Program-made: the position numbers and the translations under genes
Shown here: positions 3,358-4,270 of the stretch, in pieces
How positions within the stretch are numbered: the first letter of the stretch is position 1
Layout: each line of letters begins with the position of its first letter
Notes under the pieces: generated by a model
The model's input: the letters and a program-made list of their open reading frames with translations, nothing else
What the model was told of the DNA's origin: nothing
The model's database searches: none
Virus record (IMG/VR): IMGVR_UViG_2778261591_000014
DNA: 4,397 bases
Strand: one strand, 5' to 3'
Origin: a virus
Taxonomy: Duplodnaviria; Heunggongvirae; Uroviricota; Caudoviricetes

Positions 3358-4270
3358 CTTCGGCAGAGGTAACTTTGCCGAACAGGAGCGTAATGTGGCA
3401 GATCTCGATGATGGTTACGCCAGACTATCAAATATGCTGCTTGAGGCTTATTCAGGCGCAGATCTGACCAAGCGACAGTTTAAAGTGCTGCTTGCCATTC
3501 TGCGTAAAACCTATGGGTGGAATAAACCAATGGACAGAATCACCGATTCTCAACTTAGCGAGATTACAAAGTTACCCGTCAAACGGTGCAATGAAGCCAA
3601 GTTAGAACTCGTCAGAATGAATATTATCAAGCAGCAAGGCGGCATGTTTGGACCAAATAAAAACACCTCAGAATGGTGCATCCCTCAAAACGAGGGAGGT
3701 TCCCCTAAAATGAGGGACATCCCTCAAAACGAGGGAAAATCCCCTAAAACGAGGGATAAAACATCCCTCAAATTAGGGGATTGCTATCCCTCAAAACAGG
3801 GGGACACAAAAGACACTATTACAAAAGAAAAAAGAAAAGATTATTCGTCCGAGAATTCTGGCGAATCCTCTGACCAGACAGAAAACGATCTTTCTGTGGT
3901 TAAACCGGATGCTGCAATTCAGAGCGGCAGCAAGTGGGGAACAGCAGAAGACCTGACCGCCGCAGAGTGGATGTTTGACATGGTGAAGACCATCGCACCA
4001 TCAGCCAGAAAACCGAATTTTGCTGGGTGGGCTAACGATATCCGCCTGATGCGTGAACGTGACGGACGTAACCACCGCGACATGTGCGTGCTGTTCCGCT
4101 GGGCATGCCAGGACAACTTCTGGTCCGGTAACGTGCTGAGCCCGGCCAAACTCCGCGACAAGTGGACCCAGCTCGAAATCAACCGTAACAAGCAACAGGC
4201 AGTCGTGACAGCCAGCAAACCAAAACTCGACCTGACAAACACAGACTGGATTTACGGGGTGGATCTATGA
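3332..4270 (+). CDS. O: Replication initiator O (lambda O-type origin-binding protein), 312 aa
   Basis: Translation is near-identical to lambda O as recalled (MTNTAKILNFGRGNFA...TDWIYGVDL), apart from a 13-aa in-frame insertion (PQNEGGSPKMRDI) matching two extra iterons. RBS AGGAG at 3322-3326. Stop overlaps the P start (ATGA at 4267-4270). Confidence 0.95.
   Translation: MTNTAKILNFGRGNFAEQERNVADLDDGYARLSNMLLEAYSGADLTKRQFKVLLAILRKTYGWNKPMDRITDSQLSEITKLPVKRCNEAKLELVRMNIIKQQGGMFGPNKNTSEWCIPQNEGGSPKMRDIPQNEGKSPKTRDKTSLKLGDCYPSKQGDTKDTITKEKRKDYSSENSGESSDQTENDLSVVKPDAAIQSGSKWGTAEDLTAAEWMFDMVKTIAPSARKPNFAGWANDIRLMRERDGRNHRDMCVLFRWACQDNFWSGNVLSPAKLRDKWTQLEINRNKQQAVVTASKPKLDLTNTDWIYGVDL
3681..3804 (+). 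repeat. Replication origin iterons: six ~17-18-bp imperfect repeats (O-binding sites) inside the O gene
   Basis: Repeats of consensus TCCCTCAAAACGAGGGA begin at 3681, 3701, 3720, 3740, 3764 and 3787, each with internal dyad symmetry and ~20-23 bp periodicity. The last four match the four lambda ori iterons; the first two are additional. Confidence 0.9.
3805..3845 (+). other. A/T-rich unwinding region of the origin
   Basis: ACAAAAGACACTATTACAAAAGAAAAAAGAAAAGATTATT directly follows the iterons, as in lambda ori. Confidence 0.8.

Follow-up and report, generated by a model that had tools for sequence, protein, structure and literature searches.

How many iterons does the replication origin of this lambdoid phage contain, how were any additional copies gained, and do they matter to the initiator protein in whose gene they lie? 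The stretch analysed here (4,397 nucleotides, hereafter the window) had been read, in an initial annotation made from its letters, as holding six iterons within O where lambda holds four, through an in-frame duplication of two. We find that the window almost certainly carries the lambda-type replication origin of a Stx1a-converting lambdoid prophage, located in O and enlarged by one extra two-iteron unit of 39 bp.

By its sequence, open reading frames and Pfam matches, the window covers immunity and replication genes of a lambdoid phage. The minus strand encodes a HigB-family toxin, an HTH protein and a 134-aa ORF, and after these a cI-like S24 repressor; a cro-like gene, cII and O lie on the plus strand, where P also begins. 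Over its entire length the window matches, at 100% identity, a chromosomal prophage of E. coli OkiPb01711, a strain from bovine faeces in Okinawa, whose iteron array lies within 2875600-2875730 of NZ_AP042673. This prophage is integrated beside mlrA and carries stxA1a and stxB1a downstream of Q, which makes it a Shiga-toxin-converting lambdoid phage, and the phage-database matches to the window are likewise mostly to Stx phages.

The upstream part of the window holds several features away from the origin. Bases 1-159 have no match to phage ST2-8624, to which identity begins at base 160; in the source prophage they are the edge of an ISEc8 element (IS66 family) lying between N and the accessory genes of the immunity region, with the N-terminus of tnpA on the minus strand up to about position 71. 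Between cI and N, where lambda has rexAB, a cassette of three genes with overlapping stop and start codons occupies positions 335-1676 of the minus strand:

1389 to 1676, minus strand: HigB-family toxin (Pfam HigB_toxin, E = 4.5e-30)
736 to 1392, minus strand: 218-aa protein with a weak HTH_3 match
335 to 739, minus strand: 134-aa protein with no Pfam match

The HigB ORF is unannotated in the GenBank record of ST2-8624 (KU238070) and annotated in RefSeq. The 77-aa protein in the cro position (2631-2864) has no Pfam match at E <= 0.001 and is annotated as Cro in ST2-8624. A 33-bp block upstream of the origin, at 3307-3339 (ACTGGATCAATCCACAGGAGTCATTATGACAAA), matches the conserved sequence of the pO promoter and the oop 5' end given in PMC3349717, so the minus strand probably encodes an oop-like antisense RNA that faces the end of cII. 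An Rfam scan of the window returned no family at the gathering threshold, including none for an oop-like RNA.

The origin itself and the genes that surround it are laid out as follows, with iteron names from the literature and from lambda given where they differ from ours:

3332 to 4270, plus strand: replication initiator gene O, an ORF of 312 aa that contains the origin
3395 to 3676, plus strand: coding region of the N-terminal iteron-binding domain of O, residues 22-115 (Pfam PF04492, Phage_rep_O)
3679 to 3756, plus strand: two tandem 39-bp units of two iterons each (Tandem Repeats Finder; repeat family D2 at 90% identity; gap in the lambda alignment)
3680 to 3697, plus strand: iteron 1 (ATCCCTCAAAACGAGGGA), distal, extra relative to lambda, identical to iteron 3; "ori iteron 1" of 933W
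3700 to 3717, plus strand: iteron 2, called 1' in the literature (TTCCCCTAAAATGAGGGA), extra relative to lambda; "ori iteron 2" of 933W
3719 to 3736, plus strand: iteron 3, equivalent of lambda ITN1
3739 to 3756, plus strand: iteron 4, equivalent of lambda ITN2
3763 to 3780, plus strand: iteron 5, equivalent of lambda ITN3 with A for G at 3776, a Stx-type variant here named 3*
3786 to 3803, plus strand: iteron 6, equivalent of lambda ITN4
3804 to 3845, plus strand: A-rich, AT-rich tract, the presumed unwinding element, recognised by its GC dip and AT skew and identical to that of lambda
4267 to 4397, plus strand: start of replication gene P (DnaB helicase loader), read from the sequence and annotated as P in ST2-8624 and the source genome

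Six 18-bp iterons with the consensus ATCCCTCAAAACGAGGGA therefore lie inside O at 3680-3803, as the initial annotation had counted, with start-to-start spacings of 20, 19, 20, 24 and 23 bp. A scan with the consensus allowing up to 3 mismatches recovers four of the six, against 0.00 expected from 200 shuffles. Tandem Repeats Finder reports a period of 39 bp in 2.0 copies with 89% matches over 3679-3756, and the first of these units (3679-3717) is the one missing from lambda. The two extra sites had been placed at 3681-3697 and 3701-3717; the sites are correct, while both starts fall one base inside the 18-bp sites annotated in 933W, which begin at 3680 and 3700. Of the six sites, iteron 1' has diverged most (76% identity to the reference copy), and the T at 3711 at its centre (AAAATGAGGGA) matches iteron 1 of Salmonella phage ES18.

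The GC content drops to 0.275-0.325 across 3800-3859, where the AT skew reaches 0.78. The lambda origin has been described as four iterons plus a 38-bp AT-rich sequence (PMC3349717), and the window shares the sequence elements of this class: it has six iteron copies, two of them exactly lambda ITN1, an AT-rich tract directly downstream of the last iteron, and an O gene with a Phage_rep_O domain that contains the origin and is followed by P, whose ATG overlaps the O stop codon (ATGA). It also has the hallmarks of the six-iteron variant of Stx phages, namely six iterons and a 312-aa O with the insert IPQNEGGSPKMRD.

We then compared the origin with that of lambda. The lambda reference record annotates four iterons and an O of 299 aa, in agreement with the counts given in the initial annotation, whereas the window has six iterons and 312 aa. 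When the window, lambda and 933W are aligned as DNA or as protein, the only indel is a single gap of 39 bp, or 13 codons, in lambda; this clean gap and the repeat period bear out the proposal that the two extra iterons amount to an in-frame addition of 13 codons. Iterons 1 and 3 agree over a stretch of 19 bp, so the gap can slide and the inserted peptide can be written either as IPQNEGGSPKMRD or as PQNEGGSPKMRDI. Outside the 13-aa gap the lambda O is 99% identical to that of the window, lambda ITN1, ITN2 and ITN4 are identical to their window equivalents, and the ITN3 equivalent differs by one G-to-A change, a difference already described by Kozlowska et al. (2020; PMC7466680). The AT-rich tract is the same in both, as is the gene order cII-O-P.

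No difference at all separates the origin of the window from those of Stx phages 933W, P27, VT1-Sakai, H-19B and ST2-8624. The 933W array is identical to the window array base for base, and the 933W (AF125520) and VT1-Sakai records annotate six O-binding sites, "ori iteron 1-6", that map exactly onto the window sites. Stx phages ST2-8624 and Stx2a_WGPS9, as well as a 3-kb replication-region record (FJ705143), have the same O gene at 100% identity, and the O genes of H-19B, VT1-Sakai, BP-4795, P27, 933W and dozens of Stx1a phages match it at 98-99% identity over the full 939 bp. In lambda numbering the window O carries G17E, I112T, P170T and G278V, and 933W O carries G17E, L37I and S282G. As a further difference, the prophage of the window carries stx1a and the upstream ISEc8 insertion. 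Four Stx1a phages (LC727896-LC727899) match the window in two pieces spread over about 5,550 bp rather than 4,238 bp, and their O match begins only at base 225 of the gene (window 3556), which points to an IS-sized insertion of some 1.3 kb in the N-terminal part of O.

The iterons had further been placed in the linker between the DNA-binding and P-interacting parts of O, and the protein evidence agrees. The Phage_rep_O match (E = 3.7e-35) covers the full profile (2-95 of 95) and ends at residue 115; the iteron array begins immediately afterwards, at codon 117. Polar or disorder-promoting residues make up 82% of the stretch 117-200, compared with 56-59% elsewhere in O. The origin also divides the database matches. 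In Salmonella phages ES18, g341c and Oslo, the similarity is confined to bases 54-510 of the O gene (window 3385-3841), which encode the N domain and contain the iterons; in several coliphages it is confined to bases 473-939 (window 3804-4270), the C-terminal half, with P shared as well. Downstream of the N domain/iteron module, ES18 has a different C-terminal part of O and a T7-like primase-helicase in place of P. This pattern supports placing the array where two halves of O, each exchangeable without the other, are joined. A search of solved structures with O returned none at E <= 0.01, so the linker assignment draws on the Pfam boundary, the composition and the mosaic breakpoints.

To place the six-iteron state among related origins, we scanned IMG/VR with an exact pattern, which returned at least 120 contigs, and measured the core between the conserved flanks in 121 origins, comprising the listed IMG/VR contigs together with the window, 933W, lambda and ST2-8624. 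Among these 121 listed origins the core is 125 bp long (six iterons) in 60 and 86 bp long (four iterons) in 57; cores of 164 bp (eight iterons) and 105 bp (five iterons) occur once each, and cores of 58 or 59 bp (three iterons) twice. An intact O of 299 aa accompanies 52 of the 57 listed four-iteron origins, and an intact O of 312 aa accompanies 47 of the 60 listed six-iteron origins; the remaining O genes of these two classes run off the contig end, have no recognisable start or meet an earlier stop. Among 5,426 complete E. coli genomes the extra unit is present in about 360 (about 369 records) and the lambda-type junction in about 1,150-1,157 records, these counts being approximate values read from the BLAST identity bands of short junction queries. 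Coverage fails to separate the four- and six-iteron classes because BLAST extends through the four mismatches between the units.

The 39-bp unit occurs zero, one or two times, corresponding to four, six or eight iterons, and each state is found with an intact O (299, 312 and 325 aa). The eight-iteron array is present in two complete genomes: strain 03_3013 (L129, NZ_CP074958, 883-1045), in which O is intact at 325 aa and IPQNEGGSPKMRD is repeated twice, and O157:H7 strain 2571 (L127, 883-1045), in which IS1203 cuts the N-terminus of O. In a further eight-iteron contig (L070), an IS-like end at the edge of the contig interrupts O downstream of the A-rich tract. For Stx-phage origins, Kozlowska et al. 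describe only four and six iterons (PMC7466680). Origins with three or five iterons (L084, L018, L113 and L128) arise from inter-iteron deletions of 19-20 or 66-67 bp, and every one seen has a disrupted O reading frame, so that in our sample out-of-frame iteron counts occur only in apparently defective prophages. Iteron origins of plasmids and phages such as R6K, pSC101 and P1 are likewise made of direct initiator-binding repeats adjoining an AT-rich unwinding element, although their initiators belong to a protein family unrelated to lambda-type O. In contrast to these systems, the iterons of the window lie inside the coding sequence of the initiator itself, where changes in copy number must keep the frame.

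Short tandem repeats are prone to mis-assembly, and the true count could in principle be four, with the other two iterons produced by duplication during sequencing or assembly. This has next to no chance of being correct: the identical 125-bp array is found in 933W, VT1-Sakai and H-19B, which date from the Sanger era, and in many later phage genomes; the 312-aa frame is intact; the six-iteron origin has been cloned and footprinted (PMC7466680); and the same array or extra unit is present in 60 of the 121 listed origins and in about 360 complete E. coli genomes. The same array in independent phages and in hundreds of complete genomes thus excludes an artefact without recourse to reads. A real six-iteron array could still be the ancestral state, the four iterons of lambda, 434 and 21 having then been left by a 39-bp deletion through recombination between the identical iterons 1 and 3. 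The array is built for such an event, as identical 19-bp repeats (CATCCCTCAAAACGAGGGA) at 3679 and 3718 could recombine to delete exactly 39 bp and restore the lambda arrangement. Likely products of it also exist. Three O genes (L103, L105 and L076) are 299 aa long with four iterons and have the backbone typical of Stx phages (G17E, alone or with L37I, I112T or S282G) as well as their iteron 3*, and one other four-iteron array, an 86-bp hybrid core, keeps the GGTT spacer of the extra unit; these look like independent 39-bp deletions from six-iteron origins, and because of them repeated six-to-four deletions are likely. In addition, 4 of 39 positions (10%) distinguish one 39-bp unit from the other, all four in the spacer and iteron 1' with the first iterons of both units identical, whereas the flanks of O differ from lambda by only 1.2-2.2%. 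Such divergence exceeds the prediction for a recent neutral duplication, so that either the duplication is not recent or the first unit evolved faster; great age, rapid evolution, selection or import of the unit from a relative may account for it. A six-iteron ancestor nevertheless seems unlikely to us. The N domain/iteron module of ES18 (L125), at about 88% identity, is farther from the window than lambda is, yet it has four iterons and the lambda-type AAAA spacer; the matches in g341c and Oslo, which cover 418 bp for 457 query bases, imply four iterons as well; complete E. coli genomes have the four-iteron form about three times as often as the six-iteron one; and four iterons are found in phages as diverse as lambda, 434, 21, HK140 and SfI, none of them Stx phages. 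Because the outgroup ES18 has four iterons and the lambda spacer, the evidence favours four as the older state and six as arising by duplication, although ES18, being itself mosaic, polarises the change only weakly. Of the duplication originally proposed, the 39-bp tandem repeat stands as observed, while we infer its direction, duplication rather than deletion in lambda, with ES18 in its favour. The change need not have happened once: four O protein haplotypes, three of them Stx-type, occur at both 299 and 312 aa, and for this reason the iteron count has probably switched repeatedly.

A different question is whether the extra iterons act as DNA sites at all. They might be idle, with any effect exerted only through the 13-residue insertion in the O linker, or the variant might be neutral. 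Although every single iteron is able to bind O, footprinting of the cloned six-iteron origin showed efficient protection of only the four iterons nearest the AT-rich tract, the two distal ones binding O weakly and being barely protected in the whole origin (PMC7466680). A lambda derivative with three iterons is reported to grow normally (Moore et al., 1981, as cited), and four, six and eight iterons all coexist with intact O in nature. But a P27-derived plasmid no longer transforms cells once iteron 1 or 1' is destroyed by synonymous changes, the loss of iteron 1' having this effect with the O protein unchanged, so that at least iteron 1' is needed for the plasmid to replicate; secondary-structure prediction also suggested that the added peptide does not contact DNA (PMC7466680). 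We therefore consider idle iterons quite improbable. The authors of that study proposed that the extra iterons raise the local O concentration or stabilise the O-some, offsetting a weaker binding by Stx O; they also report that Stx origins differ from lambda in their dependence on host factors (PMC7466680).

Our preferred reading, a lambda-type origin extended by one two-iteron unit, can be put in mechanistic terms on the presumption that the standard lambda mechanism applies. Dimers of O would assemble into the O-some on the 18-bp iterons, which they contact with their N-terminal domains, the adjoining AT-rich tract would unwind, and the C-terminal half of O would recruit P bound to the host DnaB helicase. 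The extra unit most likely arose when the ITN1-ITN2 pair was duplicated in tandem, with later divergence at the four positions noted above. It adds 13 polar residues to the linker of O, with the frame kept because 39 is a multiple of three. For the extra iterons, we infer a role in raising local O concentration or stabilising the O-some. Binding by O and a functional need for the iterons would carry over to the window by analogy, through literature on the identical iteron DNA of P27 and 933W; the O proteins in that work are those of P27 and 933W.

The six-iteron architecture and its 13-residue O insertion are already known, having been annotated in 1999 and studied experimentally since. Six iterons in Stx phages compared with four in lambda, adding 13 residues to O, are described by Kozlowska et al. 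(2020; PMC7466680), who worked with the origins and O proteins of P27 and 933W and who credit the original comparison of these origins to Nejman et al. (2009); the 13 extra residues of the window are those they describe. The statement in the initial annotation that six-iteron origins are reported for Stx phages is confirmed by the 933W and VT1-Sakai records and by Kozlowska et al., and its judgement of a variant rather than a novelty was sound, given GenBank annotation and experiments that predate us. We found no open-access paper on the iterons of ST2-8624. The window itself adds one more instance, with an O identical to that of ST2-8624, in a bovine Stx1a prophage. What is new in our analysis lies outside the window, in the series of zero, one and two copies of the unit (four, six and eight iterons), the frame constraint and the signs that the count has switched recurrently.

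High Shiga-toxin production requires that Stx phages replicate, and their origins are therefore medically relevant. The 39-bp polymorphism of zero, one or two copies could serve as a natural allelic series for experiments on origin strength. As a tentative idea, and one we consider somewhat unlikely, iteron number may be a recurrently switching, frame-locked copy-number polymorphism, growing and shrinking through recombination between identical iterons and exploited by selection to tune replication initiation. If this were true, iteron switching would also tune the lysis-lysogeny switch or toxin output.
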